From: an uncultured Aminicenantes bacterium
Lineage (GTDB): Bacteria; Acidobacteriota; Aminicenantia; UBA2199
DNA: 64,000 nucleotides
Assembly: GCA_965195285.1 (NCBI GenBank)
Contig: CBDAFS010000012.1
Span: 32,001-96,000, forward strand
Direction: 5' to 3'
The notes under the pieces were generated by a model. That model did not search any database, had not been told where the DNA came from, and saw nothing but the letters and a program-made list of their open reading frames with translations. The position numbers and the translations under genes were made by a program. Positions 5,075 to 32,886 of this stretch are shown piece by piece (within the stretch, counting starts at the first letter, position 1; each line of letters opens with the position of its first letter).

Positions 5075-6412
5075 ATGAAACGCAGAGATTTTGTTCAAAA
5101 ATCCTTACTGGTTACCTCTGGTCTGGCCGCGGCCCATTGCGGGATCCGGACCACTGAAAAAACCCGGGTGGTGATTCTGGGTTTTGACGGAGCCAACTGG
5201 CCCACCATTGATCCGTTGCTAAAAAAAGGAAAGTTACCCTATCTGGAACAATTAAAAAAAGACAGTGCCTGGGCCTATTTTAAAACCTGTAAACCCGCTA
5301 AATCAAATGTGGTATGGAGCAGTATTGCCTCCGGGAAAAATATGATGAAACATGGGATCATGGATTTTACCTTTCTCAGGAAAAGTGGAATCAAAGTCCC
5401 GTATTCCAAGTCAGAAAGAATGGCTCCCATGATCTGGCAGATTCTCGATGAATTCCGGCGGCGAAGTATGGTGATCAACTGGTGGGTATCCCACCCTCCT
5501 GACCCCATCAACGGAGTGATGATTTCCGATTATTTCCGGCTGGTGTTCAGGCGTAGGCCTGATAAGCTCAATGAGTTTAAAGAATCCATTCACCCGGCCT
5601 CCTATTTCCGGCTTTTCAGAAAAATGGTTGAAAGAAACAACTACAGAGCCATTTTGAAGCAGACCGGATTGGCGGATTTTCCGGCCCTGTTCTATGAAAA
5701 ATATCCCGGGGGAAATATCAAACGGACCGTCACCCTGAAAAACTACCCCGGATTCGTTGAGCAGGACTACCTGATTGAACGGGCATCCTGGTACCTGTAC
5801 AATAAGGAAAAGTTTGATTTTTTTGCTACCTATTTCAGGTTACCGGATATAGCCCAGCATTCGGTGACCCATTTGATGGACAGACAGTTTAAAAAGAAAT
5901 TGATATCGGCATTTAAGACCAATACGGTCACCCAGTCAATGATTGATGAAGCGGTGCTTCAGGTATCGGATATACTTGAATCGGTTTACCGTCATATGGA
6001 AAAAACCATCAAGGATTATATCACCCATGAAAAAAACAGGAATACGACTTTTTTAATCATGTCGGATCATGGATTTTCGTTTTATCCGGGCGGATACAAT
6101 CATTATGGTCTTCCGGATGATTATCCGGCTCCGGACGGCATGCTCATGGTTCACGGTCCTGGAGTGAAAAAAGGCAGAATAGAAGAGGCCTCCATATTTG
6201 ATATCGCTCCTACCATTTTATACCTGCTGAATCACCCGGTAGGCCAGGACATGGATGGCCGGCCTTTAAAAGAGATATTTCAATTTAAACGCCAGGTCAA
6301 ATACAAACGCTATACCCTGAAAAAAGATCCGTCCAAGAGTCGGAATCGAGCCTATGATGAAGAGAGCCTCAGAGAACTTAAATCCCTGGGGTACATTTCC
6401 TCAGAGAAATAA
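5075..6412 (+). CDS. Alkaline-phosphatase-superfamily (NPP/phosphodiesterase-type) protein with Tat signal, probable lipoprotein
   Basis: MKRRDFVQK Tat motif; GFDGA, SNVVWSSIASG, SDHGF, DIAPTIL; C-terminal LKSLGY. Confidence 0.85.
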   Translation: MKRRDFVQKSLLVTSGLAAAHCGIRTTEKTRVVILGFDGANWPTIDPLLKKGKLPYLEQLKKDSAWAYFKTCKPAKSNVVWSSIASGKNMMKHGIMDFTFLRKSGIKVPYSKSERMAPMIWQILDEFRRRSMVINWWVSHPPDPINGVMISDYFRLVFRRRPDKLNEFKESIHPASYFRLFRKMVERNNYRAILKQTGLADFPALFYEKYPGGNIKRTVTLKNYPGFVEQDYLIERASWYLYNKEKFDFFATYFRLPDIAQHSVTHLMDRQFKKKLISAFKTNTVTQSMIDEAVLQVSDILESVYRHMEKTIKDYITHEKNRNTTFLIMSDHGFSFYPGGYNHYGLPDDYPAPDGMLMVHGPGVKKGRIEEASIFDIAPTILYLLNHPVGQDMDGRPLKEIFQFKRQVKYKRYTLKKDPSKSRNRAYDEESLRELKSLGYISSEK

Positions 6413-7226
6413 GCCGAATCGGTTCGGCAAGCCCGGGCGGGTCTCGATTTCTTATTTCCTCATTCCACTCCTGATGCTGAGCATCTGGTCGGGTTGCGGA
6501 AACCCTGATGCTTACCAGATATTAGATACCCCTCATCAGGTCATTGATCAGTGGGGAAAAGCCAGGATTTATACGGTCTACCGGCCACCGGGCCAAAAAA
6601 AACTTCCCCTGATGGTCTATTTTCACGGTGTGATGTCAGAGGGATTCAAAAGCATTCCCGCGCTGAAGAAATACACCGGCAGCCCGGTAGAAGAGACCGG
6701 ATTGATTGAGTTCTGCAAACGCCGGGATATTATTTTGCTGGTTCCCCGATCAGCGTATCACTACACTTTTTTAAATCAAGAGGCCACCGGCTGGTTGCCA
6801 TTTAATAAAGAAATCGATGGAATCGAAAAAATGATTGATCTGGTGGTTGAAAAATACCCGGTTTCTTCAAATGATATTTACCTGGTGGGGATTTCTGCCG
6901 GCGCAGGGATGTGTCACCACCTGGCCAATCATCGACCGGATTTTTATAATACCATCCTCTCTCATTCTCAGGGTTATGTTGGCCAGGATGACATCCTCTT
7001 AAAGCCAAAGCTAAAAGGCCCTCGATTCGGAGTGGTTTTTTGCTTTACCAGAGGAGATTATGATAATTTGATTGATATATGTATCCAATCAGAAAAAATA
7101 TACCGGAAATCTGGCTACCGGACTGTTCTTTTAAAAAATTTACCTCCAAAAAGCCATAGCTGGTCAAGGGAGAGTAATCGCAGATTCTGGAGGTATATGC
7201 AAAATGTTGGAAGAAAACAGAACTAA
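6354..7226 (+). CDS. Alpha/beta hydrolase (esterase/PHB-depolymerase-like), probable lipoprotein; start uncertain
   Basis: LPLMVYFHG, GISAG nucleophile elbow, C-terminal HSW; hydrophobic stretch ending WSGC. Confidence 0.75.
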   Translation: MMKRASENLNPWGTFPQRNKPNRFGKPGRVSISYFLIPLLMLSIWSGCGNPDAYQILDTPHQVIDQWGKARIYTVYRPPGQKKLPLMVYFHGVMSEGFKSIPALKKYTGSPVEETGLIEFCKRRDIILLVPRSAYHYTFLNQEATGWLPFNKEIDGIEKMIDLVVEKYPVSSNDIYLVGISAGAGMCHHLANHRPDFYNTILSHSQGYVGQDDILLKPKLKGPRFGVVFCFTRGDYDNLIDICIQSEKIYRKSGYRTVLLKNLPPKSHSWSRESNRRFWRYMQNVGRKQN

Positions 7227-9649
7227 CGGCTCATGTCAGTTTTAATAATTTCCGGGTAATCCGGGATCAGGGTTATGCGTTTTATAAAAAAATTATTCTC
7301 TCGCAGACCTCTCACATCCACCTCAATAAAATTGATCGGATCATTTATCTCTATTTGAATTGATTCGAATTCCTTATTCAGTTCAAAAGATTTTTTGGAA
7401 ATCCCTGCTGATGTAAAGAGTCGGTATTCCAGAGTATTTTGATATTCTGCTGAAAATTGTTTTGATATTCTGTGTCCGACTATATGGAGTTTGTATTTGC
7501 CCTGTGAAATCGGGAAAAAATCGATATGGATATTTTTCAGGGTATTTTCCGAATTATTGAATATCTCAGCTGTTTGAATAAAGGTGAGCAGTGATAGGTC
7601 AAGACCTGTTTTTTTATAATAATTTTTCATCCAGTATGGAAGTTTTTTATTTGAGAACAGTTCCGGAATTGGTTTGTTTATGGTTTTGGCGTCGGTTTTT
7701 TTTATTTTCAGTACTGATTTTTGAATGCCACTAAAAATCGGGGTAAGAACAAAATAATAGGGCCTGTGTTTGGCATTGGTTTGTATTTCGATATGATAGA
7801 CATAATCTTTATGATACTTTTTTGGTTTGATGTTGCCTATTTCAATCAGGTTGATTGTTGTTTGGTTTTTTTGGTTTATGATTCTTTCTACATTGTTTAT
7901 CTTGAGGTTTAAATCCAGATGCTCATTAAGGGAAAACAGGATCATATTCAATTTATTTATTTTCACTTTGGAATAGAGGTAATGGCAGTATCTGCCCTGT
8001 ATTGTTTTTCCGAATCCCGGGTTTTTTTCATATGCCTGAAGGGGAAAGTATGATGTGTGTTCATTCAGGCAGTATGTTCTGGGTAATTTCATTAACAATT
8101 GTGATCCGGGATTCGAAATTTGTAAAAGCTCTTCTGAAATACGGTATAAAAAAATAAAATCAATGTCCCAGGGTTGAAATCTGGGTTTCTGAATCAGGTA
8201 AAAGGGTTTGTACTTTGAAAAATCAATTGGTAAATCAATTTTTTGCTTTTTATCTCTTTTGGTTAATCCAAGGTATTGTTGATGAACCGCTTGAATGAAA
8301 TGGGGAATTCGATCTAAATGCCTAAACCATCTGATTTGAAATTTGGCATTCAGTTTTATCCCGCCCTTAATCCGCGGGGTAAGGTGTTGAAAGGCAATGT
8401 TATAACGATCTGCCGAGATCCCTTGATGGTGTCGGTAATCCTTAGCCCAGTTGTTTTTTGATTTGGTCTTCAATTGATTGAAGATCGTAATATTTGTTTT
8501 AATATTGGAAAGGGCGAAAACAGATGTACCGATCCAGAAAAAAACAATGAAAATTTGCCAGGCCTTTTTATTACCTCTGAATACTTTTTTTAAATCAACG
8601 AATATTGTTTTTCCAATCAAAATCACAATACTTGAATAGAGGGGGATACAAAAACGGTCACCATAAAATCCCATTAAACCAAATATGGATATATAAATTA
8701 ATATAAAAGAACCAAATATAATTTCCTTTTTCCCTTTTATTATGAAACTGAGCGGAATTGCCAATAGCAAGATAATGACAAAGATCAATCCGAAGTCTTT
8801 AATGAAGTTATTGACGAATTTCATGTAGATATCCATGGGTGAATATATTCGATAGGGTTCAAAAACGGATTCGCTTCCAAAACCATACTTTTGAAGAAAA
8901 TATTTCAGATTTTTTAATGGATGAATCAACCAGTTCGGTGCCCCGATAAAAAATCCGGCTGCCATCACCACAGGCAAAAAAATCAGTGATTTTATTGCTT
9001 TTTTCTTGTTTATTTCCTTTCTGGTTAAAAATATAACCAGCAGAATTATCAAAATAAATATATAAACATTATATTTGGTGGCAACGGCTATGCCGAATAT
9101 AAATGAAGCCCATAGCAGTAATTTGATGTCATGGTTTTTTAAATATTTCAACAGGAAATACAGAGCCAGGGTTATAAAAAGGGATACCAGAATATCGGAT
9201 TTGAAGATATGGGCCTGGAGGATTATAAGATGATTAAAAGCCATCAAAATGGCGGCAAAAAAGGCAACGTTCCGGTTATAAAATTCGTTACCTATTCTAT
9301 ATACCAGATATACCAGCAAAACGGCCAGAAATGCATTGATAACTCTTCCGGCTTCTACCGTAAAATGAAGGCCTATTGATGACATGAATTGAGAAAATGT
9401 GCTGATTAATCCAAGAAAAATCAATATGTTTTTGTACAGAAAGGATAATATGAAATTTAGATACAGGAAAAACGGAGGATATAAGTTTACCGGAAAGGGA
9501 TTTTCATAAAGATCCCAGACAAAGCCGGCAATCATGGTTTCATCTACTGATTTGAAGGGAATGAGTTGTTTTATACTCAGGAGAAACGTGATAAATAGAA
9601 TGGAGATTAATAATATTTTTCTGATAATACGAAAGGCGGAAGCGTTCAT
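7223..9649 (-). CDS. GT-C-fold (GT39/PMT_2-like) glycosyltransferase with large C-terminal periplasmic region
   Basis: VDE motif after TM1, YPPFFLY, KSD, ATKY, RF motifs; about 11 TM helices; strongly AT-rich. Confidence 0.8.
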   Translation of the reverse strand: MNASAFRIIRKILLISILFITFLLSIKQLIPFKSVDETMIAGFVWDLYENPFPVNLYPPFFLYLNFILSFLYKNILIFLGLISTFSQFMSSIGLHFTVEAGRVINAFLAVLLVYLVYRIGNEFYNRNVAFFAAILMAFNHLIILQAHIFKSDILVSLFITLALYFLLKYLKNHDIKLLLWASFIFGIAVATKYNVYIFILIILLVIFLTRKEINKKKAIKSLIFLPVVMAAGFFIGAPNWLIHPLKNLKYFLQKYGFGSESVFEPYRIYSPMDIYMKFVNNFIKDFGLIFVIILLLAIPLSFIIKGKKEIIFGSFILIYISIFGLMGFYGDRFCIPLYSSIVILIGKTIFVDLKKVFRGNKKAWQIFIVFFWIGTSVFALSNIKTNITIFNQLKTKSKNNWAKDYRHHQGISADRYNIAFQHLTPRIKGGIKLNAKFQIRWFRHLDRIPHFIQAVHQQYLGLTKRDKKQKIDLPIDFSKYKPFYLIQKPRFQPWDIDFIFLYRISEELLQISNPGSQLLMKLPRTYCLNEHTSYFPLQAYEKNPGFGKTIQGRYCHYLYSKVKINKLNMILFSLNEHLDLNLKINNVERIINQKNQTTINLIEIGNIKPKKYHKDYVYHIEIQTNAKHRPYYFVLTPIFSGIQKSVLKIKKTDAKTINKPIPELFSNKKLPYWMKNYYKKTGLDLSLLTFIQTAEIFNNSENTLKNIHIDFFPISQGKYKLHIVGHRISKQFSAEYQNTLEYRLFTSAGISKKSFELNKEFESIQIEINDPINFIEVDVRGLRENNFFIKRITLIPDYPEIIKTDMSR

Positions 9650-9655
9650 TTCCCT

Positions 9656-9684
9656 ATTTTAGCAAAGGACATATATGCAGTCAA
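9656..9684 (-). promoter_or_regulatory. sigma70-type promoter, leaderless configuration
   Basis: Minus strand TTGACT-17-TAAAAT with extended TG, 6 nt before ATG 9649. Confidence 0.7.
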
Positions 9685-10661: not shown

Positions 10662-10668
10662 CGGGGTC

Positions 10669-10733
10669 ATTATATCAAAACTCCGAATCACCGTCAATTT
10701 CAAATTGACTGACCCCGCGGGTTGTGTTAAAAT
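10669..10733. promoter_or_regulatory. Back-to-back sigma70-type promoters
   Basis: Minus: TTGACG-17-TATAAT (10697-10669). Plus: TTGACT-17-TAAAAT (10705-10733). Confidence 0.7.
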
Positions 10734-10784
10734 ATACAAAAGTCCCGGAACTTCTGGACCGGGATGGTTGATGAGTAAGCGTAC

Positions 10785-12107
10785 ATGAAGACAAAATCGG
10801 TTGACTTGAAAAAAAATGCGGTCCTGGTGTTGATTTTACTGTTTTCCCTGTTGTTCGGTACCTGTTCCCCCCGAAAGGTGGCCGATTTCAATATTGTTTT
10901 GATTGTGATTGACACCCTGAGATCGGATCATCTGTCTTTTTACGGGTATGACAAAAATACAACTCCTTTTTTATCTGAAATTGCAAAAAAATCAATTATT
11001 TTTGAAAATTGCTTTTCTGCTTCATCCTGGACATCTCCTGCAACTGCCTCGATCTTTACTTCCATGTATCCCTTTCAACATGGAGTTCTATTGGGATTGC
11101 TGGCTGTGATAAAGGCGAAAGCTTTAGAACCGGAAATCAAAGTAAATAAAATCCCAGAGAGAATTGAGACCATCACCGAAGTTTTTAAGAAGAATAATTA
11201 TAAGACTTTTGGTATTTCCGATAACCTGAATATTGGAAAGAAACAAGGATTTAATCAGGGTTTTGATCGCCTCCAAACTTTCAATTATAAAGGAGCCCCT
11301 GAAGTAAATAAAATTTTAAAAAAATGGAAAAAGGAAATACTTGAGAATGGGAAATATTTTTTATATCTTCATTATATGGATCCGCATGCGCCATATCATC
11401 ATAGAAAACCCTGGTATAAGCCTCAAGTAGGCAAGAAAAATATCTCACTTGAAGCCTATGACAGTGAAATTTATTATGTTGACCAATACATCCGGGAAGC
11501 CTTTCAGCTATTCAATTGGAAAAAAAACACCCTGGTCATTGTTACCTCTGATCATGGAGAGGGATTATGGGATCACGGAATTATGGGCCATGGTTATACA
11601 TTGTATCGAGAGGAAATACAGGTCCCCTTGTTGATTTATTTACCCGAAAAAAAGATTTTCAGAAGAATAAGTTCAAATGTAAGCACCATTGATATTTTAC
11701 CTACAGTTAGAGAGCTGGTTGGCCTGCCTTCCAGTAAAAATGACGAAGGTATCAGCCTTTTACCCTATATAGAAAATAAAAAGAAAAAACCGGATAAACG
11801 GTTTGTATTTTCCTATTTATGGAAGCTCGGTACTGAAAAAGGCGATCAAATCGAATACAAGTCAGCCATTTACAAGAGGTTGCATTTTATGATGAAGCTC
11901 CCTGCCGAGAGGGAGCTATATGACCTGTATACAGATAAAAAGGAAGAAAACAACCGGTTCAATTCCAACCGGAAGAGTGCCAGGTATTTGGAATCAAAAT
12001 TTAATATATTTATGAAAAAGTGTAAAAAGTTCAACCCCGAATCAGTCCATTATAAAATGAGTAAAAAGAATATCGAGAGATTAAAAACACTGGGATATGT
12101 TAAATAA
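10785..12107 (+). CDS. Sulfatase-like hydrolase/transferase (Thr at nucleophile position), probable lipoprotein
   Basis: NIVLIVIDTLRSDH, WTSPATAS, YLHYMDPH, SDHGE, GHG; signal ending FGTC; C-terminal LKTLGY. Confidence 0.87.
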   Translation: MKTKSVDLKKNAVLVLILLFSLLFGTCSPRKVADFNIVLIVIDTLRSDHLSFYGYDKNTTPFLSEIAKKSIIFENCFSASSWTSPATASIFTSMYPFQHGVLLGLLAVIKAKALEPEIKVNKIPERIETITEVFKKNNYKTFGISDNLNIGKKQGFNQGFDRLQTFNYKGAPEVNKILKKWKKEILENGKYFLYLHYMDPHAPYHHRKPWYKPQVGKKNISLEAYDSEIYYVDQYIREAFQLFNWKKNTLVIVTSDHGEGLWDHGIMGHGYTLYREEIQVPLLIYLPEKKIFRRISSNVSTIDILPTVRELVGLPSSKNDEGISLLPYIENKKKKPDKRFVFSYLWKLGTEKGDQIEYKSAIYKRLHFMMKLPAERELYDLYTDKKEENNRFNSNRKSARYLESKFNIFMKKCKKFNPESVHYKMSKKNIERLKTLGYVK

Positions 12108-12177
12108 TCATATTCAATGAGTCACGGAGCTATCCCCAATTTGTCATATATACCGATAAATATGGTATAATGTTCTC

Positions 12178-13512
12178 ATGAATAAAAGCAAATATTATCA
12201 GTTTATATTGGTCATCATTGCTGTTATGGGTTTATTCACCTGTGGAAAACAAACAGATTCAGGGACTACTATTAAGGTAGTGGTATTGGGATTTGACGGG
12301 GCCAGTTGGGCAACTATTGATCCGCTGATTGACAATGGAAAATTGCCTTTTCTGAAGCAATTGAAAGCGGAGTGTGCCTGGGCGAATTTCAAAACCTTCA
12401 AACCCACCAAATCCAATGTCGTATGGACCAGCATTGCCTCCGGGAAAACCATGTTAAAACACGGGATCATGGATTTTGTCTATCTGAAAAAGAAGGGGAT
12501 CAGGGTTCCCTTTTCCAAATCCAACCGTCTGACGCCCATGCTCTGGCAGATTCTGGATCTGTATCAAAAGAGAAGCATTGTGTTGAACTGGTGGGTTTCT
12601 CATCCCCCGGACAAAATCAACGGGGTCATGATATCGGATCATTTCAGAAAAATTGCCACCACCAGACCGAAATTTCTGGATGAGTACCGGTCCTCGGTTT
12701 ATCCGCCTGAATATTTTGATCGGTTAAAAAAATTCGGGGACATGAATCGGAAATACCTACAGGTTTTGAAAAAGACAGGTCTTCCTGAATATATCAGTTG
12801 GTATTACCGAAGTCAGCCCCGGGGGGATCACCAGAAAGTTCCGGTTTTAAATGTATATCCTCGCTTGATCAAATACGATGCCACCATTGAAAGTGTATCC
12901 GGTTATCTGTACCAGCGGGAAAATTTTGATTTTTTTGCCACTTATTTCCGGTTTCCGGATATCATCCAGCACTTTGTGATTGAATTGATAGAGGAAGACA
13001 TTAAAACCAGGCTGAAGGAGTTGGATTTTGATGCACCCGAATCAACGGATTTTCTCAGCCGGACCACCCGGAAGATTTCCGACCTGATGGAACCGGCCTA
13101 TCAATACATGGAGCGAATTCTCAAGGCCTATATGTCCAATCCGAAATATAAAAATGCCTATTTCTTTATCATGTCCGATCACGGTTTTTCCCTGACCCCG
13201 GAGGGATATGACCACTACCACCTGCCTGTAAAATTCGATCCGCCCGATGGGTTCCTCATCATCAGGGGGCCAACGGTAAAAAAGGGAAAAATTGAGAAGG
13301 CTTCGATTTATGACATTGCCCCGACCATTCTGAATTTATATAATCTTCCGGTCGGGGAAAACATGGACGGCCGGGTATTGCGGGAGGTTTTCAATCTGAA
13401 ACGCAAAACCCGATACCGGCTCTATAAATTGAAAAAAGAGAAAATCCTGCAGGATGAACGTTACAACCGGGAATCCCTAAAAGAACTGGAATCAATGGGT
13501 TATATCGATTGA
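12178..13512 (+). CDS. Alkaline-phosphatase-superfamily (NPP-type) lipoprotein, paralog of 5075-6412
   Basis: Signal ending LFTC; GFDGA, SNVVWTSIASG, SDHGF, DIAPTIL; C-terminal LESMGY. TG-TATAAT at 12166-12171 sits 6 nt before the ATG. Confidence 0.85.
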   Translation: MNKSKYYQFILVIIAVMGLFTCGKQTDSGTTIKVVVLGFDGASWATIDPLIDNGKLPFLKQLKAECAWANFKTFKPTKSNVVWTSIASGKTMLKHGIMDFVYLKKKGIRVPFSKSNRLTPMLWQILDLYQKRSIVLNWWVSHPPDKINGVMISDHFRKIATTRPKFLDEYRSSVYPPEYFDRLKKFGDMNRKYLQVLKKTGLPEYISWYYRSQPRGDHQKVPVLNVYPRLIKYDATIESVSGYLYQRENFDFFATYFRFPDIIQHFVIELIEEDIKTRLKELDFDAPESTDFLSRTTRKISDLMEPAYQYMERILKAYMSNPKYKNAYFFIMSDHGFSLTPEGYDHYHLPVKFDPPDGFLIIRGPTVKKGKIEKASIYDIAPTILNLYNLPVGENMDGRVLREVFNLKRKTRYRLYKLKKEKILQDERYNRESLKELESMGYID

Positions 13513-13574
13513 TTCACCGGTGAAAATGTGTTGGGCGTCACCGGGGAATCGATTGTCGGTGGAAACCCTTCAAA

Positions 13575-13603
13575 TTGACATAAATCAGTGCATTTGGTAA
13601 CAT
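13575..13603 (+). promoter_or_regulatory. sigma70-type promoter, leaderless configuration
   Basis: TTGACA-17-TAACAT with extended TG, 7 nt before ATG 13611. Confidence 0.65.
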
Positions 13604-13610
13604 AGCCAGA

Positions 13611-15419
13611 ATGAAAAAATCATTTGTCGCCCTTGTTTTCATCCTGATAGCTGCGGCCTTATTACTGGTATTGATTTCCCGTCCGGACCGCAGCGGATTC
13701 CACCGGCTGGCGTTTTCAGCGCCGGGCCTGAAACCGGTTCTCCAGGAACCCGAGCTCAGCCTGGCCAGAAAAGTCAAAATGGACCGGCATATTACCGATG
13801 GCCAGGTTTTACATTTCAAGGGGAGTGGAATTCTGACCCTGTCACCGGAAATCCGGGGAAAGAAGGGGGTTTTTTTCACCTTTCAGGCAGCAGCCACTGA
13901 TTCCGGAAAAATCAGGACATCCATCTATCTGGACCGAAAGGGCAAACTGGTTAAATTGAAAACCTACCTGGGCCATTCCTATTATCACAGTTTTGTCAGA
14001 GAGATGAAATTAATGAAGCAGGACCGGTTCAGAATAGAGGTCCAGGGAAATGGAATTCTGGTGGCGAACAGGCCGGTCATATACGATATTGTTGATATAG
14101 AGAAGCGTAAATATGTTTTTGTCATAGCCCTGGATACCCTGCGCTACGATAAGGTGGGGGGCACCCGGAACGGTGTGGACCTGACCCCTCATATCAGTGA
14201 ATTCAGAAGGGATTGCTGTGAGTTTACCGAGGCCTTTGCCCAAAGCAACTGGACCCTCCCCTCATTCATGAGCTTTTTTACCGGGCAGTATGAATTCAAT
14301 CATCAAATAACCCGGGATTCCTCTTTATCAGCGGATAACCCTTTTCTGAGCAGAGACCTTTCGAAAAGGTTTTTTACGGTCAATTTTAATGCCGGTTTAT
14401 GGTTGAAGGGCAAATTCGGCTTTTCCAGGGGGTTTGACCTTTTTTCGGTTCTATCCTCTCCCAAAGACAGTCTGGGCGGAAAAGTCATGTTTGCTCAGGC
14501 CCTTGACTTTCTGAAAAGGGTTCAAGCGCCCTCTGTTTTCATGTTCCTGCATACCTATCAGATTCATTCGCCTTATGCGCCTCCGGAAAAGTTTCTCAAA
14601 CAGGTTTCCGAGCAATCCGAATATAAAAAACTGGATTCATTTTTTTATAAAAAACAATTTAAAAACGATGTGGCACCGAATCTTCGCCTGGCCATGGAAA
14701 CGCTTCATGATGCCGAAATTTTAGCTTTTGACAGTTTTTTCGGGGATTTTATCCGCAGCCTCAAGGACCTGAACATCTATGACCGGTCCATGATCGTTTT
14801 TCTATCCGATCACGGTGAAGAATTCTATGAACATCAGGGCTGGGCCCATTGCCATTCCCTGTATAATGAGGTGATTCAGGTACCGCTGTTTATCAAGTTC
14901 CCCGGTTTCCGCTTCAAAGGAAAACAGATCCGGGAAAATGTCGGGTTGATTGATGTGTTGCCCACGGTAATGGATCAGTACCGGATCAACCCGAATCCAC
15001 AGGTTGATGGATTGAGTCTGATGCCGCTTTTAAAGGGGAAGGCCTGGAACCGGGAACAATTGATGTCCTCGACATCGGTGGCCTGGCTGGTCCGGCAAAT
15101 TCCGCCGAAACTGTCCCTGCTGAGAAACCGTTTCAAGCTTATCTATAATTTTAGATTTTCCCCGGAAGACCTGGATTATTTTGCCGAATTCGGAACCCCT
15201 CCGGAAGTCGATGACATACAACTTTTTGACCTGGGCAAGGATCGGTCTGAAGTTTCGGAGCTGACCGGTAAAGAAAAAGTCCGCCAGCTGAACCATTTCA
15301 GGTCAGAACTGACCCGGATGAAAAAAACCATCACTGCGGTCATGAAGAGGAAACGACTGAAAAATGTGACCCTGAGCGATGAAGAAAAAGAAAAACTGAG
15401 ATCGTTGGGGTACTTGTAG
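13611..15419 (+). CDS. Sulfatase-like hydrolase/transferase with N-terminal anchor and extra beta-rich domain
   Basis: IALDTLRYD, WTLPSFMS, FLHTYQIHSPY, SDHGEEF; C-terminal LRSLGYL. Confidence 0.85.
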   Translation: MKKSFVALVFILIAAALLLVLISRPDRSGFHRLAFSAPGLKPVLQEPELSLARKVKMDRHITDGQVLHFKGSGILTLSPEIRGKKGVFFTFQAAATDSGKIRTSIYLDRKGKLVKLKTYLGHSYYHSFVREMKLMKQDRFRIEVQGNGILVANRPVIYDIVDIEKRKYVFVIALDTLRYDKVGGTRNGVDLTPHISEFRRDCCEFTEAFAQSNWTLPSFMSFFTGQYEFNHQITRDSSLSADNPFLSRDLSKRFFTVNFNAGLWLKGKFGFSRGFDLFSVLSSPKDSLGGKVMFAQALDFLKRVQAPSVFMFLHTYQIHSPYAPPEKFLKQVSEQSEYKKLDSFFYKKQFKNDVAPNLRLAMETLHDAEILAFDSFFGDFIRSLKDLNIYDRSMIVFLSDHGEEFYEHQGWAHCHSLYNEVIQVPLFIKFPGFRFKGKQIRENVGLIDVLPTVMDQYRINPNPQVDGLSLMPLLKGKAWNREQLMSSTSVAWLVRQIPPKLSLLRNRFKLIYNFRFSPEDLDYFAEFGTPPEVDDIQLFDLGKDRSEVSELTGKEKVRQLNHFRSELTRMKKTITAVMKRKRLKNVTLSDEEKEKLRSLGYL

Positions 15420-15439
15420 TATTTTTCCATGAAATGGTG

Positions 15440-15468
15440 TTGACTATCCAAATTTTTTTGCATATAAT
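15440..15468 (+). promoter_or_regulatory. sigma70-type promoter
   Basis: TTGACT-17-TATAAT; AGGAGG RBS at 15486-15491. Confidence 0.75.
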
Positions 15469-15497
15469 GACATCTTTATTTATTTAGGAGGAATTAG

Positions 15498-20131: not shown

Positions 20132-21511
20132 TTAATCCTGAATGTATCCCAGGCTTTTCAGTTTTTCAATGTCTTCCTGTGAGAGTTTTGACGGATTCAG
20201 ATGATATTTCCGGGTTTCTTTGATGCAGTCTTTCACCGACTCTGCATACTGCTTCAGCTCTGACTCAAGGGCCAGAAAATTTTTGTCCTGGAATTTGTAA
20301 ATATTATTGAGTTCGAATCCATCGTTTTTCAAATTGAATACTTCGAATCTTCTCGATCTGTCGGTCAGGATTATTTTTCTTGAATTCCGAACCAGGCCGT
20401 ATTTGATCGGATAAACCCGGGTCTTGAATTTTATTCCCTTTTTAAAAACTGCCCTGCCCTTATAGGTTTCGAAGAAAACCTTTTTTCTGCGGTCGGGCAC
20501 CATTAAATTGATGCCTTCCATTTGGGGGGGCAGGGGGATCTTCAGAATGGAGAGAATGGTAGGTGAAATATCCAAAATGGAGACATAGTCGTTTCGGATA
20601 CGTTTCTCCGGCCGGTTCCCGGGCGGTTTGATAATCAGGGGTACCAGGAGGGTCGAATTGTATAGATTCCTGCCATGCCTAAAATATTTGTGTTCACCGA
20701 AACTCTCGCCATGGTCCGAATTGAAGATGATCAGGGCATCCCGGTACAGTCCAAGGGATTTTATTTTGGCGATCATTTTACCAAAATAAAAATCGGTCAG
20801 GCCGATTTCACTGTCATATTTCTCAATTTTCTGAAACTGGGTGCCAGCCGGGTAGAGGGATTTGTTTTTTTTCTGGAAATCGAACCGGAATTTCCGGTGG
20901 AATATATAGGGGGCATGGGGTTCGGTATAATGAACCCAGAGGAATATTCTTTTACCCTGATTCTTTTCCAGCCAGGTACTGGCCCTTTGGGTAACGTTCC
21001 GGGCTTTCCCTTCCGTATTCAGTATCCCCATCCATCTTTTTTTTCCAAGTACCTCGTCATACAAGTCAAAATCCCTGTCCAGGCCGCAAAGTTTCTTACG
21101 CAGGGACCAGTTGGATATAAAGGCGGCGCAGGCATAACCATGGGACTTTAAAAACCAGGGCAATGTATGAATATTACTGTATATAGACAGTCCGTTCCGC
21201 TTGGATCCGTGTTTGTGGGGAGGGAGCGAGGTCAGCATACTGGCAAAAGCCGGTGAAGTCAACGGGGTAATGGTATAACTCCGGGAGAAAAGCAAGCCAT
21301 CTCTGGAAAAAGCATCAATTTCCGGCGATGTGTTCAGCGGGTATCCGTAACAGCCCAGGTGATCGGCTCTCAACGTATCAACCGATATGATGATGATGTT
21401 TTTTAGATCGGGGGATTCGGCGGGAAGTGAAAGACAGCCCAGGGTCCAGATTAAAATCAGGACGAGTATGCGGTGGGTCGGTCCGACTTTCAAATGGGTT
21501 TTAAGATTCAT
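20132..21511 (-). CDS. Exported sulfatase-like hydrolase/transferase (Thr at nucleophile position)
   Basis: NIIIISVDTLRADH, LTSPAFAS, WVHYTEPH, SDHGE; C-terminal LKSLGY. Confidence 0.87.
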   Translation of the reverse strand: MNLKTHLKVGPTHRILVLILIWTLGCLSLPAESPDLKNIIIISVDTLRADHLGCYGYPLNTSPEIDAFSRDGLLFSRSYTITPLTSPAFASMLTSLPPHKHGSKRNGLSIYSNIHTLPWFLKSHGYACAAFISNWSLRKKLCGLDRDFDLYDEVLGKKRWMGILNTEGKARNVTQRASTWLEKNQGKRIFLWVHYTEPHAPYIFHRKFRFDFQKKNKSLYPAGTQFQKIEKYDSEIGLTDFYFGKMIAKIKSLGLYRDALIIFNSDHGESFGEHKYFRHGRNLYNSTLLVPLIIKPPGNRPEKRIRNDYVSILDISPTILSILKIPLPPQMEGINLMVPDRRKKVFFETYKGRAVFKKGIKFKTRVYPIKYGLVRNSRKIILTDRSRRFEVFNLKNDGFELNNIYKFQDKNFLALESELKQYAESVKDCIKETRKYHLNPSKLSQEDIEKLKSLGYIQD

Positions 21512-21540
21512 GTTTTTTCTCTCCGCTAATGGCCTTCCTT

Positions 21541-21627
21541 ATTATAATATTTGCGGGTAGAATTGTAAAATCCGGCCAGATTCTGCTGCCAGCCCTGCTT
21601 GACACAATACCGGGCATTCAGTATAAT
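21541..21627. promoter_or_regulatory. Divergent sigma70-type promoters
   Basis: Plus: perfect TTGACA-17-TATAAT (21599-21627). Minus: TTTACA-17-TATAAT (21569-21541). Confidence 0.8.
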
Positions 21628-21659
21628 AGGGCTTATCTTTTTCCATACACGGAAATATC

Positions 21660-22940: not shown

Positions 22941-23722
22941 TGAAAATATTCGGATTGCATCGGGCCTGTATTTTGGGTTTTGTCCTGTTTTTGTTCATTC
23001 TATTTTCAGTTGCGGCGGTTCCCCGATTACCCGGGGGTGATGCTGAACCGGATCCCCGAATCGGAGCTCAGGTGTTTATACGTTCCGGGAATTATTATGT
23101 GGGAAACCCGACCGAAACAAACACTCAGTCCCACCGACTGATGGCATTCAGAGATTTTTATATAGATATCCACCCGGTGACCAATTTTCAATATGTGGAG
23201 TTTATTAACCGGAGCCGTTATCATCCACGGGGAAAGTTCAGCATTGAAGAGGCCCGAAAGAATCCCTGGCTGCCGGCCACCGGCCTGATCCATGCTGATG
23301 CCGAGGCCTTTGCCGATTTCCATCAGAAACGCCTGCCCACGGAATGGGAGTGGGAAATTGCGGCGCGTTCTCTGGAAAAGGATGTGTTGTATGCCATCGG
23401 ATCTCTGCCCACTCTGGAAACCGGTAATTTTTACCGTTATAAACAGAAGAACGGGGTCACTCCGGGTTTTTCCTACCCGCCCAATAAACTGGGAATATAC
23501 GGGATGGCCGGAAATGTGTTTGAATGGACATCCAGTTTATATCCGATCGAGAAACTCAAGGGGGCCTATTTTCAGAAATACCGCCTCATGGTTTTAAGAG
23601 GAGGTGCCTGGACCAATATTCCCCATGATGTGCGAGTGACAACCCGGACACCGTTTCCGGCCAGCAGAAGTCTGGAATGGCTGGGATTCAGGTGTGTTTC
23701 TGAGAAACCGGTCCAGCATTGA
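22937..23722 (+). CDS. FGE-sulfatase (SUMF1/EgtB/PvdO) domain protein, exported
   Basis: PVTNFQY, RLPTEWEWE.AAR, PN..G.Y.M.GNV.EW, RGGAW, GFRCV. ATG overlaps the upstream TGA. Confidence 0.87.
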   Translation: MMKIFGLHRACILGFVLFLFILFSVAAVPRLPGGDAEPDPRIGAQVFIRSGNYYVGNPTETNTQSHRLMAFRDFYIDIHPVTNFQYVEFINRSRYHPRGKFSIEEARKNPWLPATGLIHADAEAFADFHQKRLPTEWEWEIAARSLEKDVLYAIGSLPTLETGNFYRYKQKNGVTPGFSYPPNKLGIYGMAGNVFEWTSSLYPIEKLKGAYFQKYRLMVLRGGAWTNIPHDVRVTTRTPFPASRSLEWLGFRCVSEKPVQH

Positions 23723-28302: not shown

Positions 28303-29911
28303 AATAACGGTTGTGGGTTCCGGGGCCAGTGGTGTCCATTTTGCGCTTTCCGCCCTTAAAAAGGGACATCAGGTTGAAATGCTGGATGTGGGGTATTCAG
28401 CTCCCCCCAATGTGAACCCGGAGTTTTCTTTCATTGATATCAAATCCAAACTGGAGGACCCGGTTGCCTATTTTTTAGGTGAAAACTATGAGACCGTAGT
28501 TTCCCCCGATTTTGACAATGAGATCTACGAATTCCCTCCCAATAAGATGTATATATTTAAAGTCCCCCCGGGTTTCAAATCCGACAGCAGGGATTTTGAT
28601 CCGCTGTTTTCTTTTGCCCGGGGCGGGCTGGCCGAGGCCTGGACCGGGGGAAGCTATCCATTTAATGATCAAGATCTGGCCCTCTTTCCCTTTGACTATG
28701 AAACCCTGAAGCCCTATTACGAGGAGATTGCCGAGCGGATTGGTCTGATTGGAGACAGGGATGATATTTCCCGTTTTTTTCCTTGGCATGAGAACCTTCT
28801 CCCTCCCCTGGAACTGGATGAGAATTCAAAAATAATTCTGGAAAAATACCAAAAACGGAGAGAACTACTCAACCGGAAAATGGGTTTTTATTTGGGCAGG
28901 TCCAGGATTGCCACCCTGAGCGTTGATAAGGGGGATCGCAAGGCCTGTGACTATTCGGGAAGGTGTCTCTGGGGATGTCCCAGTGATTCCCTGTATGTTC
29001 CCTCATTGACCCTGGCCGATTGCCAGAAATACGAACATTTCAGCTATAAACCCGGTGTGCTGGTCGAACATTTTAAGGTCAATTCCCGGAAGCGGATCAC
29101 ACACCTGGTTTTCCAGGATCTGGCCCTTCAGAAAAGAGGGGAAATAAAAGTGGATAACCTGGTGTTGGCCGCCGGCACCCTCTCATCATCAAAAATTTTC
29201 CTGGATTCCGTTTACCGGCAAACCGGAAAAATACTGAAACTGGAAGGTCTGATGGACAACCGTCAAATCCTGGTTCCTTTTTTGAACCTCAGTTTAATGG
29301 GAAAATCATATAACCCGGAGTCCTATGTGTATCACCAACTGGCCGTGGGTTTCGAGTGTGAAAAGACTTCCAATTACATTCACGGTCAGATCACCACCCT
29401 GAAAACGGCCTTGATTCACCCGGTGACCCTGCAGATGCCGCTGGACTTTAAAACGGCAACCTACCTGACCCGGAATCTGCATTCGGCACTGGGGGTCATC
29501 AACCTGAATTTCTGCGATACCCGGCGAGCGGATAACCAGCTCACCATTGAGCCGGATTCAACCGGCAAGCAAGACCAGACTACCCTGAAAATTACCTATC
29601 AATCGATTCCCGACGAAAAAACCATCATTTCTTCAGCCACCAAGCGAGTGATGAAATTCCTGAGAAAACTGGGGTCGATTGCACCACCCATGATGATCCA
29701 ATCCCGGCCCATGGGGGCCAGTGTTCACTATTCGGGGACCCTGCCTATGAGCACTACCGATGAACCACTGGGTGTCACACCGGATTGCCGGAGCCGGGAT
29801 TTTGATAACCTGTTCTTTGTTGACGGAACCGTTTTTCCGTTTTTACCGGCAAAGAACCTGACCTTTACCATGATGGCCAATGCGGCCCGAGTTGCAGATA
29901 AAGTCTTTTAA
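28295..29911 (+). CDS. GMC-family FAD oxidoreductase
   Basis: VVGSGASG, C...G.C..GCP, LAAGTL, HYSGT.PM, NLFFVDG, NLTFTMMANA.R. Confidence 0.88.
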   Translation: MVKITVVGSGASGVHFALSALKKGHQVEMLDVGYSAPPNVNPEFSFIDIKSKLEDPVAYFLGENYETVVSPDFDNEIYEFPPNKMYIFKVPPGFKSDSRDFDPLFSFARGGLAEAWTGGSYPFNDQDLALFPFDYETLKPYYEEIAERIGLIGDRDDISRFFPWHENLLPPLELDENSKIILEKYQKRRELLNRKMGFYLGRSRIATLSVDKGDRKACDYSGRCLWGCPSDSLYVPSLTLADCQKYEHFSYKPGVLVEHFKVNSRKRITHLVFQDLALQKRGEIKVDNLVLAAGTLSSSKIFLDSVYRQTGKILKLEGLMDNRQILVPFLNLSLMGKSYNPESYVYHQLAVGFECEKTSNYIHGQITTLKTALIHPVTLQMPLDFKTATYLTRNLHSALGVINLNFCDTRRADNQLTIEPDSTGKQDQTTLKITYQSIPDEKTIISSATKRVMKFLRKLGSIAPPMMIQSRPMGASVHYSGTLPMSTTDEPLGVTPDCRSRDFDNLFFVDGTVFPFLPAKNLTFTMMANAARVADKVF

Positions 29912-29925
29912 TGAACGAGGAGAAT

Positions 29926-31518
29926 ATGAAGAAAATACTTTTTGGTTTACTGGCTCTCTTTCTGGTACTGAACCTGTTTCCGGAAATTGACAAAAAAAAC
30001 AATCAGAAAAAAACGTTAACATTTGAAAAAGCAGTGGCCTGCCGGGCAGTTCTTGAAATCAGGTCACTGGTCAGCGGATCTGTTTCCGAGGTGCTGGCCG
30101 CCAAGGGGGACCGAGTCACAACCGGCCAAATATTACTCCAGTTTGATGTCTCGGGGCTGGATGAGGAAATCCGGACAGCAGAGCAGAGTCTGGAAATATG
30201 GGAAAAAACACTCTTCAATCGTGAACATTGGAAGGTTCGCAGCCAGCCAGCCGAAAACCAGGCCAAAAGAAAAATAGAGGAGTTTAAAACCGATATTAAA
30301 AAGAAAAAACAGCAGAAATCCCGGCAGCGGATCCATTCGCTGATTGAGGGAAGCGTATTGGATATTGTTGATGAAAAAATGCCGGTGGAAGAGGACCAGG
30401 TAGTGGCCCGGATCGGGGATGATTCGGTGCTCAAAATTGAATTAACCCCGAATGACTCCAACCGGAATGTTCTGGCAGAAATTCAGGATGGAGAAAAAAT
30501 ATCTCTGACCTTTAAGAAAGTCAACCTGGCCTGTTCCGGGGAGATCAAAAAAGTGAATGATCGAATGGTCATTCTTATTCCCAATGACAAATACCTGCTG
30601 AAACCGGGAATGATGGCCAAATTCCAGTTCACTTATGATATCCAACCGGAGATCCAAAAGGTACTGAAACAACCCCAGGTCCGGCCGAAAGATCTTCAGT
30701 ATATAAAAGAGAAAAAGATCGGATTTGAAATTTCAGCCGGGATGTCATGGTCGGATCCCGGCGAATATTACGACCGGGCTTCAGGGATTGACAACCTGAT
30801 GGATCAGTACATCCAAAACTACGGCCTGGAATATACGATCAGCGGTAAATTCGGAAAGAATATTATTTATTTTCCGGTCAATGTCCTGGTCAATTACCGG
30901 ATTTCGGAAAAATGGTATCTGAAAGCCGGCCTTGAGTTCGGTTATGGCAATCAATCCAGCCAGAAAACCTACCATTTAAACTGGACCACCACAACCGAGG
31001 ATCACCGTTACAATCTCTCTTCAAAATTAACCTATTTCATGCCCTTTGTGGGAGCGGAAAGACGGTTCGGAAAATTTGGTGTTTATGCAAATGTGGGATT
31101 GAATTTGCTCAGCTTATCCCACCAGAAAAATCTGGAAATATCAGAATCCACTTACTGGTACAGGCAGGATGAAGACATCTCGGCCACTGGCACCGGTATC
31201 GGAATACTGGTGGGAGGAAAATACAATTTTCTCATTGGTAAAAAAACGAACCTGATTCTAAAGCTGGAATTATGTTATTTGAAAGTGAGCAACCTGTCCG
31301 GGAGCCGGGACGCCTCTATTACAAACTCGCTCGGAGAATCCCTGTCTGAATCCATTCAGGGGACCATTTACAGTTTTGAGATAAATCCCTATGACCTGGG
31401 CTGGTTTTATACCTGGGAAATGTTTGGTTCGGTTCCCGGTGAGTCCTGGATTCGAAATGTGAGCGAGATGGCCATCAATATGTCCAGTATTCGGCTGATG
31501 CTGGGAATTAAATTTTAG
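29926..31518 (+). CDS. Fusion: HlyD/RND periplasmic adaptor (MFP) plus C-terminal outer-membrane beta-barrel
   Basis: Signal peptide; lipoyl half IRSLVSGSVSEVLAAKGDRV..GQIL, coiled coil, second lipoyl half, LKPGM; amphipathic strands ending IRLMLGIKF. Start follows GAGGAG. Confidence 0.75.
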   Translation: MKKILFGLLALFLVLNLFPEIDKKNNQKKTLTFEKAVACRAVLEIRSLVSGSVSEVLAAKGDRVTTGQILLQFDVSGLDEEIRTAEQSLEIWEKTLFNREHWKVRSQPAENQAKRKIEEFKTDIKKKKQQKSRQRIHSLIEGSVLDIVDEKMPVEEDQVVARIGDDSVLKIELTPNDSNRNVLAEIQDGEKISLTFKKVNLACSGEIKKVNDRMVILIPNDKYLLKPGMMAKFQFTYDIQPEIQKVLKQPQVRPKDLQYIKEKKIGFEISAGMSWSDPGEYYDRASGIDNLMDQYIQNYGLEYTISGKFGKNIIYFPVNVLVNYRISEKWYLKAGLEFGYGNQSSQKTYHLNWTTTTEDHRYNLSSKLTYFMPFVGAERRFGKFGVYANVGLNLLSLSHQKNLEISESTYWYRQDEDISATGTGIGILVGGKYNFLIGKKTNLILKLELCYLKVSNLSGSRDASITNSLGESLSESIQGTIYSFEINPYDLGWFYTWEMFGSVPGESWIRNVSEMAINMSSIRLMLGIKF

Positions 31519-31554
31519 AGGCGAGTATATTCTGTACTGAAATGGAAGTATGAA

Positions 31555-32886
31555 ATGGAAGTAAAGAACAACGTCAGGCTGTTGATCCTATTGCTGGTTC
31601 TGGGAGTGTCGATGTGCCTGTTGATCGCCCCGGGATGCCGGCCGGACCGCTCCGTCCTGCCCAATGTGGTGGTCATTGTCATTGATACCCTGAGGGCAGA
31701 TCATCTTCCCTTCTATGGTTATCCCAAAAACACGGCCCCTTTTTTGGCTAAACTGGCCTCTCAGGGTGTTCTCTTTGAAAAAGCCTATGCGACTTCTTCC
31801 CTGACCGCCCCTTCCACCGCTTCGTTGTTTACTTCTTTTTATCCGTTTCAACACGGTGTGGTCCTGAATATTGGCGGAACCATCAAACTTCGGAAAATGG
31901 CACCCAAACTGAAGGTGAAATTAAACAAAATACCTCCGGAGATCACCACTCTGGGAGAAATATTCAAACAGGCCGGGTACAGCACATACGGGGTTTCGGA
32001 TAATATCAACATCGGTGACAAAGAAGCGTTTGATCAGGGATTTGATAAGTTTTCAACCTTTACCTACCGCGGTGCGCCGGCCATCAACCAGCAGGTAAAG
32101 GAATGGGCCGATGAAATTAAAAGCCGGGAACGGTATTTCCTGTACTTGCATTACATGGATCCCCATCAACCCTTTTTTGAACGGAAACCCTGGTATCAAA
32201 AGCAGGATGATCCTCGTGATAACCAGGTGGCCATGTATGACAGTGAAATTAATTATGCGGATCAACATATCCGGGAACTCCATGAGTTGTTTAACTGGTC
32301 GGAGAATACCCTGATTGTGGTGACCTCTGATCACGGTGAAGAGCTCTGGGATCATGGCCTGAAAGGACACGGTTATTCCCTGTTCCGGGAAGTCATTCAT
32401 GTCCCCCTGATGTTTTATTATCCCGGTGGTCAATTCAGTGCCGGAACCATAAAAGAGAATGTCAGCCTTATCGATGTGCTGCCCACCCTGAACGAATTTC
32501 TGGGATTGCCTCCGGACAAGGAGCATGAGGGAATCAGTCTGTTGCCCCGGATTATCGGGAGTGAACTGCAGTTACCCCAGCGGTTTTTATTTGCCCATCT
32601 GGTGGATCACAGTTTTTCAGAAAAAATGGCAGAGACCGAATCCACTCTCTATGAAAACTGGCATTTTATCAAGAATTTTTCCGGTTCCTGGTATTTATAC
32701 AATCTGAAACTCGATCCCGGTGAAAAATACAACCAGCAGGTCGGAGATCACGGAATTGCCCGCCGGCTTTTTGCCCGCTACCGTGGATTCAAAAAAAAGT
32801 GCCGGATTTTCAAACATGATAGTACCTCTTTTTATCTGGATGAAAAACAGATTGAGAAATTGAAAACACTGGGTTATGTGAAGTAG
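31555..32886 (+). CDS. Sulfatase-like lipoprotein (Thr at nucleophile position), paralog of 10785-12107
   Basis: Signal ending APGC; PNVVVIVIDTLRADH, LTAPSTAS, YLHYMDPH, SDHGEE; C-terminal LKTLGY. Confidence 0.88.
   Translation: MEVKNNVRLLILLLVLGVSMCLLIAPGCRPDRSVLPNVVVIVIDTLRADHLPFYGYPKNTAPFLAKLASQGVLFEKAYATSSLTAPSTASLFTSFYPFQHGVVLNIGGTIKLRKMAPKLKVKLNKIPPEITTLGEIFKQAGYSTYGVSDNINIGDKEAFDQGFDKFSTFTYRGAPAINQQVKEWADEIKSRERYFLYLHYMDPHQPFFERKPWYQKQDDPRDNQVAMYDSEINYADQHIRELHELFNWSENTLIVVTSDHGEELWDHGLKGHGYSLFREVIHVPLMFYYPGGQFSAGTIKENVSLIDVLPTLNEFLGLPPDKEHEGISLLPRIIGSELQLPQRFLFAHLVDHSFSEKMAETESTLYENWHFIKNFSGSWYLYNLKLDPGEKYNQQVGDHGIARRLFARYRGFKKKCRIFKHDSTSFYLDEKQIEKLKTLGYVK

Follow-up and report, generated by a model that had tools for sequence, protein, structure and literature searches.

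The window analyzed here, a 64,000-nucleotide stretch of genomic DNA from an uncultured Aminicenantes bacterium, encodes six alkaline phosphatase (AP) superfamily enzymes that belong to two divergent types and close on the same short sequence, L-x-x-[LM]-G-Y, which we refer to as the LGY tail. We found that the LGY tail is a widespread, portable add-on without a name and that, judged from alignments, it is more conserved than the enzymes bearing it. The explanation we favor, at a probability of roughly 50%, is that the tail is a non-covalent docking or assembly peg, for which we infer a partner.

The LGY tail in the window, the host genome and relatives

A first-pass annotation of this DNA had described six AP-superfamily open reading frames (ORFs) with a shared L-x-x-[LM]-G-Y ending. 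All six are present with the endings it gave, and counting codons back from each stop reproduced its motif coordinates exactly (Table 1). The motif closes each of the six translations, one to five residues from the C-terminus as claimed, and the expression L..[LM]GY.{0,8}$ matched exactly these six among the 195 stop-to-stop ORFs of at least 80 residues in the whole window. By their N-termini, which appear by eye to hold a hydrophobic signal or anchor and a lipobox-like Cys, the six proteins would be exported.

The genome-wide motif scan proposed in the same annotation covered 5676 ORFs of at least 100 residues in the host assembly (G000; 3.28 Mb, 62 contigs) and found the terminal motif in 15 of them, compared to a mean of 1.75 (range 0-7) in 20 residue shuffles. 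Twelve of the 15 matches are AP-superfamily proteins, and a 13th terminal AP tail has the variant ending LKNFGYL; searches with PF00884 and PF01663 gave 21 AP-superfamily ORFs, of which, counting three internal copies, 16 carry the LGY motif. The remaining five lack it: one is a sulfatase of the Cys type (C-T-A-G-R), one a polytopic LtaS-like protein, one a cytoplasmic NPP, and two are large proteins resembling NPPs. Eight of the 16 carriers lie in a stretch of about 53 kb on contig C12, and all 16 have signal-peptide-like, lipoprotein-like or anchor-like N-termini by eye. One of them, the NPP-type enzyme at 5075-6412, begins MKRRDFVQKS...AAAHC (5075-5150, plus strand), by eye a twin-arginine-like signal (KRRDF) with a lipobox-like Cys behind it; export of at least one LGY enzyme in the folded state, by the twin-arginine translocation (Tat) pathway, is therefore possible.

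A 24-column tail profile built from the 16 host tails recovered all of them at E ≤4e-6 in a six-frame search of the genome, as it must by construction with its own training set, and found no further match below E 0.55. Matches of the expression in L008 and L009 look like chance, and we treated in the same way a CysA-like sulfate-transporter ATPase (G000:C49:24661-25806, minus strand) that ends LSQLGYLE, adjoins two permease-like genes and is unmatched by the tail profile at E ≤10. Identical residues among the 16 tails share a codon in only 308 of 682 comparisons, indicating that selection acts on the peptide and that recent DNA copying does not explain the likeness.

Among the 120 nearest homologues of each type, the tail is present in all 120 of the sulfatase type (consensus [LI]-[ST]-x-E-D-h-E-[KR]-L-K-S-L-G-Y-I) and in 116 of the NPP type (consensus D-x-E-[TA]-h-x-E-L-K-[SA]-[LI]-G-Y-I), where the four lacking it comprise two truncated proteins and two with a 13-residue Lys-rich extension. 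NPP-type relatives in species-representative genomes keep the tail in 58 of 59 cases, down to 26% identity, and the lone tail-less protein is cut by a contig end; two tail-keeping relatives at 26-29% identity come from a KSB1 metagenome-assembled genome (MAG) and an unclassified MAG. In a phylum sample of 81 genomes, searched at a profile threshold of E ≤0.001, 33 genomes gave a match (31 of 79 without G049 and G024, both flagged unpublished). The host has the most copies (16), followed by genomes with 11, 8, 8 and 6, a ranking that favors the host on whose tails the profile was trained. Twenty matches sampled from 16 other genomes (16 terminal, 4 internal) all lie in ORFs hit by the sulfatase-type hidden Markov model, one of them a 119-residue remnant, and three more tailed sulfatase-like ORFs beside these matches have G-Y, at the end or within, and in no case G-F. 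All 16 paralogue tails keep Leu(-4), Gly and Tyr without change, and the Tyr is nowhere replaced, by Phe or otherwise, among the 16 paralogues, the 236 nearest homologues, the 58 species-level relatives and the neighboring paralogues. As read from these sequences, the conserved element is a module of about 15 residues, [LI]-[ST]-x-E-[DE]-h-x-x-L-[KRE]-[STA]-[LIM]-G-Y-[IVL], and is longer than the six-residue motif.

Table 1. Coordinates of LGY enzymes, their tail segments, fused paralogues and interleaved membrane proteins (window positions unless a host contig is given).
Feature	Position	Strand	Details
NPP-type AP-superfamily enzyme, 445 residues	5075..6412	+	ends ...LRELKSLGYISSEK (LKSLGYISSEK); PF01663 E 5e-20; AlphaFold2 pLDDT 87.5
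LGY tail segment of 5075-6412	6326..6409	+	linker, helix 425-438, G439-Y440, ISSEK; tail alignment, DSSP, pLDDT 69-73
Sulfatase-fold enzyme, 440 residues, Thr at formylglycine position	10785..12107	+	ends ...IERLKTLGYVK; PF00884 E 3e-45; T-x-P motif
LGY tail segment of 10785-12107	12033..12104	+	tail alignment; profile match E 9.5e-8
NPP-type AP-superfamily enzyme, 444 residues, lipoprotein-like N-terminus	12178..13512	+	ends ...LKELESMGYID; PF01663 E 7e-20
LGY tail segment of 12178-13512	13438..13509	+	tail alignment; profile match E 3.9e-6
Sulfatase-fold enzyme, 602 residues, N-terminal extension, Thr at formylglycine position	13611..15419	+	ends ...KEKLRSLGYL; PF00884 E 3e-27
LGY tail segment of 13611-15419	15348..15416	+	tail alignment; profile match E 3.1e-6
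Sulfatase-fold enzyme, 459 residues, lipoprotein-like, Thr85 at formylglycine position	20132..21511	-	ends ...DIEKLKSLGYIQD (LKSLGYIQD); PF00884 E 4e-47; AlphaFold2 pLDDT 86.6
LGY tail segment of 20132-21511	20135..20209	-	linker 437-444, helix 445-454, G455-Y456, IQD; profile match E 6.6e-9
Sulfatase-fold enzyme, 443 residues, lipoprotein-like, Thr at formylglycine position	31555..32886	+	ends ...IEKLKTLGYVK; PF00884 E 5e-47
LGY tail segment of 31555-32886	32812..32883	+	tail alignment; profile match E 2.4e-7
Sulfatase-fold enzyme with internal LGY, then TPR	G000:C12:12137-14602		11-20 kb upstream of window, same contig
Sulfatase-fold enzyme with internal LGY, then TPR	G000:C12:18942-21089		11-20 kb upstream of window, same contig
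Sulfatase-fold enzyme with internal LGY, then TPR	G000:C62:184303-186474		
Large polytopic membrane protein	3240-4973	-	interleaved with LGY enzymes
Large polytopic membrane protein	7223-9649	-	interleaved with LGY enzymes
Large polytopic membrane protein	17638-20106	+	interleaved with LGY enzymes
Large polytopic membrane protein	23719-26211	+	interleaved with LGY enzymes

Structure of the tail and of the enzymes that carry it

AlphaFold2 models of the sulfatase-type enzyme at 20132-21511 and the NPP-type enzyme at 5075-6412, built with alignments of 58 and 61 rows (mean pLDDT 86.6 and 87.5), bear out the earlier suggestion that the motif sits on a short helix after a charged linker. In both, a tail helix of 10-14 residues follows a coil linker and ends exactly before Gly-Tyr (helix 445-454 then G455-Y456 in the sulfatase type, helix 425-438 then G439-Y440 in the NPP type), with a tail pLDDT of 67-77 (about 70) compared to more than 90 in the cores. 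Across the 16-tail alignment the linkers are charged, rich in Lys, Arg and Glu, and mutually unlike. The sequence pattern and the DSSP strings together suggest that L-x-x-L-G-Y would form a Schellman-type helix C-cap, with Leu(-4) packing on Tyr(+1), and that S/T-x-x-E would be the N-cap.

The catalytic domains in front of this helix are as divergent as the first-pass annotation had held, and a profile-profile comparison of the two types aligned only about 90 columns. Pfam assigns two of the six window enzymes to the NPP type (PF01663, E 5e-20 and 7e-20; 72-73 bits against a gathering cut-off of 23) and four to the sulfatase type (PF00884, E 3e-27 to 4e-47; 96-161 bits against a cut-off of 25). 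The sulfatase-type model has an S1-sulfatase fold (Z 34-39, root-mean-square deviation (rmsd) of about 3 Å, 345-388 residues aligned, residues 34-438), with LtaP and PbgA also at Z 34, and the NPP-type model matches ENPP1 and ENPP3 (Z 26) and the Xanthomonas (Xac) NPP (Z 24.6) over residues 24-410, at an rmsd of about 3 Å over about 265-276 residues. The last motif common to both folds is M-[ED]-G-x-x-L; about 45 residues come after it in the NPP type and about 120, with an extra C-terminal subdomain, in the sulfatase type, so that the two types bear the tail at structurally non-equivalent positions.

We did not find the tail in the solved structures compared, an absence among those chains that is not proof. 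The best match of the tail profile to PDB sequences (E 0.019) is an unrelated LEKLKSLG helix of ACAD9, and when whole proteins were searched by profile, the best-matched stretches of the listed solved chains all ended by position 441 of the 454 in the profile. The sulfatase-type model has a helical extension beyond the core (helices 410-436 and 445-454); in structure alignments solved chains reach residue 449 at furthest, and the long helix 410-436 aligns furthest with choline sulfatase, to residue 448-449. For the NPP-type model the structural matches stop at residue 410, apart from two incidental high-rmsd rows that reach past 428, to 436 and 445. A complex prediction pairing the catalytic domain (30-429) of the enzyme at 20132-21511 with its tail (430-459) scored 0.07 and 0.09 against a mark of 0.32, without controls, and weighs on neither side of the question of binding.

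Alignment to solved sulfatases sets the formylglycine position of the LGY sulfatase-fold enzymes at Thr85, in T-x-P, and led us to reject the Thr of D-T-L-R-A-D-H as the nucleophile. Here the genome's 14 LGY-bearing sulfatase-fold ORFs all read T-x-[PSA]-[SA]-x, lacking both the Cys or Ser of C/S-x-P-x-R that formylglycine formation needs and the Arg of that motif; the sole genome ORF with C-T-A-G-R, on contig C39, has no LGY tail. The metal-site Asp at the end of strand 1 and the D-H pair are kept, with D45, D266 and H267 invariant in the sulfatase-type alignment and in all 14 paralogues. In the NPP-type alignment D38, T71, S77, D331, H332 and H343 are invariant and are plausible site residues, unmapped to a solved NPP. 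Because Thr replaces the Cys/formylglycine motif in the window's four sulfatase-fold enzymes, sulfate chemistry is unlikely, and for all 14 ORFs phosphoryl transfer of the LtaS/EptA/PbgA chemical type is more likely than sulfatase activity. An FGE-sulfatase-like gene (PF03781, E 3.5e-38) lies at 22874-23722 (plus strand) amid these sulfatase-fold genes, all of which lack the Cys/formylglycine motif, and its product may act on a different substrate.

Docking and competing explanations

A near-identical tail on divergent domains, held by flexible tethers, points to one common binding site. On the docking explanation, exported enzymes of the Thr-nucleophile sulfatase fold and of the NPP fold would bear, behind their catalytic domain and on a charged, flexible tether, a short amphipathic helix in which S/T-x-x-E is N-cap-like and Gly-Tyr forms the C-cap. 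The hydrophobic face of this helix (h-7, L-4, L-1, Y+1, I+2) and its conserved charges would insert into a single site shared by all carriers. Conceivable common sites are a shared third-party receptor, the catalytic cleft (the only surface both folds share) and the tails themselves. The first-pass annotation had offered a docking or oligomerization tag and a swinging Tyr arm; the tag gains from the tethered helix, its non-equivalent attachment points on two folds, its conservation and the TPR-linked internal form, while the arm found no positive support.

TPR repeats are the best visible candidate receptor because of their exclusive fusion to the LGY helix. In all seven proteins with an internal motif (three in the host, four in other genomes) the motif is followed by 10-20 Gly/Ser-rich residues and then by TPR repeats, and none of these seven AP enzymes has a domain of another type behind the motif. 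The three host fusions have the motif at about residue 425-432 and then 280-392 residues of TPR repeats; over the internal copies here (3 of 16) and elsewhere (4 of 20 sampled), 211-392 residues follow. Twenty-one host ORFs, the three fusions included, match the fusion TPR regions at E ≤1e-6. The TPR module behind the helix would accept the peg in cis in these fused paralogues and in trans from enzymes that end in it. Within the docking explanation we put forward a TPR receptor tentatively; an AP-fold domain or its cleft is not a likely site, and association of one tail with another appears quite improbable.

Several observations weigh against docking. A pLDDT near 70 is no guide to whether the helix is free or packs against its own domain. 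Clustering of neighbors at 20 loci (about 4.5 kb on each side where the contig allowed) and in the first 36 kb of the window found no recurrent partner gene next to LGY enzymes; an 822-residue membrane-protein type occurs in three loci, two of them among the 20 outside the window, and a PMT_2 type in two, one of them among the 20. Four genomes (G076, G012, G015 and G033) each have one detectable LGY protein, which is terminal, and the tail profile found no LGY-TPR protein in them, so that any receptor in these genomes would be either the enzyme itself or an LGY-free protein, TPR or other. The Tyr is never Phe, which a purely hydrophobic peg does not require, and its hydroxyl may do something specific. 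Finally, two LGY proteins that are not enzymes, P0251 and P0247, are singletons on contigs of 555 and 2133 bases.

These two came from a tail-only profile search of 1.84 billion representative proteins, in which a single 24-column tail is too short to reach significance, so that the search gives no census of carrier folds. It returned 11 proteins at E ≤0.001, all with repeated look-alike helices and at least five of them HA-domain (PF03457) repeat proteins. Two of the 11 look like genuine LGY carriers: P0251 is an 80-residue mini-lipoprotein made of two LGY helices, and P0247, of 436 residues and anti-sigma-like, combines zf-HC2 and a hydrophobic stretch that we read as a membrane helix with two LGY helices, presumably in its periplasmic part, and DUF4349. 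Such enzyme-free proteins hint faintly that the LGY helix might function on its own. A word-index search with the last 40 residues found no candidate among proteins of 30-251 residues. The HA domain was rejected as a relative and is a look-alike only, with the resemblance confined to one helix: its last helix shows this capping pattern too, as L-S-x-E-[RD]-h-x-x-L-E-x-L-G-[FY]-h, but belongs to a cytoplasmic helical domain of about 64 residues and ends Phe-x-Trp (L-G-F-x-W), and PF03457 matched none of the 12 LGY enzymes scanned whole.

That L-x-x-L-G-[FY]-capped helices are ordinary in unrelated domains, the last HA helix among them, together with a tail pLDDT above that usual for free disorder, fits a structural end-cap that folds back and only stabilizes its own protein, with no partner. 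We consider this unlikely: the helix is attached at non-equivalent points on two folds behind variable charged linkers, has Gly/Ser linkers on both sides in the TPR fusions, is the sole content of the 80-residue lipoprotein and is conserved more strongly than the domains it would stabilize. A PBP5-type membrane-anchor helix was likewise set aside, as the front half of the helix is acidic and its hydrophobic face narrow.

Export-like N-termini on all host carriers, the position of 13 of 16 motifs within 1-5 residues of the C-terminus and the sharing of one tail by many different enzymes, as with known sorting tags, would also suit a C-terminal signal that an envelope machine reads for sorting, retention or surface display. 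In known signals of this kind (PEP-CTERM, LPXTG, GlyGly-CTERM and the type IX secretion system (T9SS) C-terminal domain) the motif precedes a transmembrane helix and a basic cluster, or there is a beta-sandwich C-terminal domain of about 80 residues; no transmembrane helix, basic cluster or beta-sandwich follows the LGY motif, after whose Tyr the 13 terminal host copies have only 1-5 polar or hydrophobic residues. These vary in number and kind, which argues that no free carboxylate is read. The internal copies, three in the host and four in the sample, the tandem copies in one small protein, the lack of a recurrent dedicated machine gene at the loci clustered above and the other exported AP-fold enzymes of the genome that have no tail make a sorting signal improbable.

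Simple hydrophobic docking leaves the unbroken invariance of the Tyr unexplained, which keeps hydroxyl-dependent explanations alive. In one of these, the main rival to docking on a receptor, the helix would grip a neighboring AP-fold domain or its own at or near the catalytic cleft. Homo- or hetero-oligomers would result, or else an active site under autoinhibition or gating, in which the Tyr hydroxyl would face the metal or phosphate site as an aryl-OH ligand resembling a product. The invariance of the Tyr suggests a role for the hydroxyl, and genomes with a single LGY enzyme exist, several of them near-complete, for which the partner may be the enzyme itself. As described in PMC5870055, C-terminal extensions drive oligomerization in an AP-type choline sulfatase (SmCS), in phosphonate monoester hydrolases and in dimeric arylsulfatases, and the extreme C-termini of SmCS reach the active-site entrance of the other protomer and supply three tunnel residues; it is with choline sulfatase that helix 410-436 of our model aligns furthest. 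However, the same paper presents these extensions as subgroup-specific and more variable than the core, whereas LGY is near-identical on two folds, the front half of the helix is acidic, and no result here puts the tail on a domain. We regard this explanation as doubtful.

The swinging arm would take a phosphoryl, sulfuryl or phospho-alcohol group from a Thr-enzyme intermediate onto its Tyr and pass it on. The Tyr is invariant in every tail seen and the tail is on a flexible tether, but a Tyr that carries phosphoryl or sulfuryl groups is not known from the AP superfamily, Thr in place of formylglycine makes sulfate transfer unlikely, and the same helix occurs internally before TPR repeats. Acyl-Tyr shuttles on C-terminal motifs do exist in MBOAT-SGNH systems (PMC12148441), and on contig C59 an MBOAT gene lies two genes upstream of an LGY enzyme. 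Against this, the motif is not FXYXXF and does not lie on a membrane helix, and the window holds no MBOAT gene; the only two PF03062 matches in the genome, for its 16 tails, are on contigs C59 and C30. A covalent carrier is thus very improbable. A broader scheme, in which the LGY helix would be a universal plug for AP-fold clefts, with its Tyr hydroxyl at the metal/phosphate site as pseudo-substrate or transient phosphoryl or phospho-alcohol acceptor, and in which the 16 tailed enzymes, the TPR fusions and the LGY mini-proteins would form a regulated relay or a mutually gated envelope phosphotransfer network, is in our judgment a long shot.

Full-text literature searches, whose scope ended short of supplements and subscription journals, found no published description of the LGY tail. 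Thr-nucleophile 'sulfatases' and COG3379-like NPP enzymes are very large families with generic annotation and no known substrates, and a tail better conserved than its enzymes offers a handle on how these enzymes are organized. If the docking peg is true, a synthetic tail peptide could fish out the partner, tail deletion or a Y-to-F change would give a clean phenotype, and a named motif would deserve to replace the annotation 'arylsulfatase A-like'; if the Tyr is chemically active, the cell envelope would have a group carrier of a new kind.

Genomic setting and comparison with known systems

The LGY enzymes of the window have as neighbors four large polytopic membrane proteins, a GT2, an epimerase, a GMC oxidoreductase, the FGE-like protein and a Big_7 protein. 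Two of the polytopic proteins match PMT_2 (GT-C glycosyltransferases) and two match no Pfam family. Because GT-C-type glycosyltransferases, a GT2 and an epimerase surround the LGY enzymes, the window is, by its gene content, an envelope-glycan setting. On either side of the last LGY enzyme lie similar proteins of unusual fusion (29911-31518 and 32893-34956, both plus strand), each with a biotin-lipoyl-like (membrane-fusion-protein-like) segment and a C-terminal part like an outer-membrane beta-barrel; their Pfam matches are weak, below gathering scores, and the barrel match is on 32893-34956 only. An esterase-like ORF at 6354-7226 (plus strand; weak PF10503 match), when its first ATG is taken as the start, covers the final 59 bases of the NPP-type gene, tail codons included; its true start probably lies further downstream.

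Two loci outside the window are of note for their gene order. At G000:C59:14313-19483, on one strand, an MBOAT gene, a gene for a 581-residue membrane-anchored protein and one for an LGY-tailed sulfatase-fold enzyme follow each other, the genome's only MBOAT-LGY neighbors. In G033 (L033:2098-8676) the gene for the LGY-tailed sulfatase-fold enzyme runs into the beginning of a tail-less NPP-like gene, the first of a pair (712 and 654 residues) that resembles the tail-less pair G000:C62:141230-145534 (141230-143218 and 143234-145534). The G033 LGY enzyme and the tail-less NPP-like genes could be a client-receptor pair.

Short C-terminal peptides read by TPR proteins are known from the EEVD of Hsp70 and Hsp90 with Hop and CHIP and from PTS1 with PEX5; these peptides are extended and are read through the free carboxylate. 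The LGY tail is like them a short conserved C-terminal element on many different clients, but it is helical, has a variable number of residues after the Tyr and also occurs internally, and its TPR contact is only a candidate. In the cysteine synthase complex, the C-terminal tail of CysE plugs into the CysK active site and couples the two activities, with the carboxylate of the terminal Ile being essential. The likeness to a plugging LGY tail is in concept only, as the folds differ and that complex is cytoplasmic.

DltX and MBOAT proteins such as PatA have as their acyl shuttle an F-X-Y-X-X-F hexapeptide on a membrane helix beside an MBOAT/SGNH pair (PMC12148441). This shuttle has in common with the LGY tail an invariant Tyr in a conserved motif at or near the extracytoplasmic C-terminus of envelope-modifying proteins. 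The LGY tail instead reads L-G-Y-[IVL] plus 0-4 residues, often only one or two after the Tyr, with no Phe at -2 or +3; it is soluble, follows a soluble catalytic domain and has no MBOAT/SGNH pair in the window, and its chemistry would be phosphoryl or sulfuryl rather than acyl. Closer in their protein context are the oligomerization extensions of SmCS, phosphonate monoester hydrolases and dimeric arylsulfatases within the AP superfamily itself (PMC5870055). Like the sulfatase-type LGY enzymes, these have a helical extension behind an S1-sulfatase-type core, and the long helix of SmCS directs the tail to the other protomer. However, such extensions comprise 50-60 residues, are specific to subgroups and vary, whereas the LGY tail is about 15 residues long, occurs on two AP folds behind variable linkers and can be internal.

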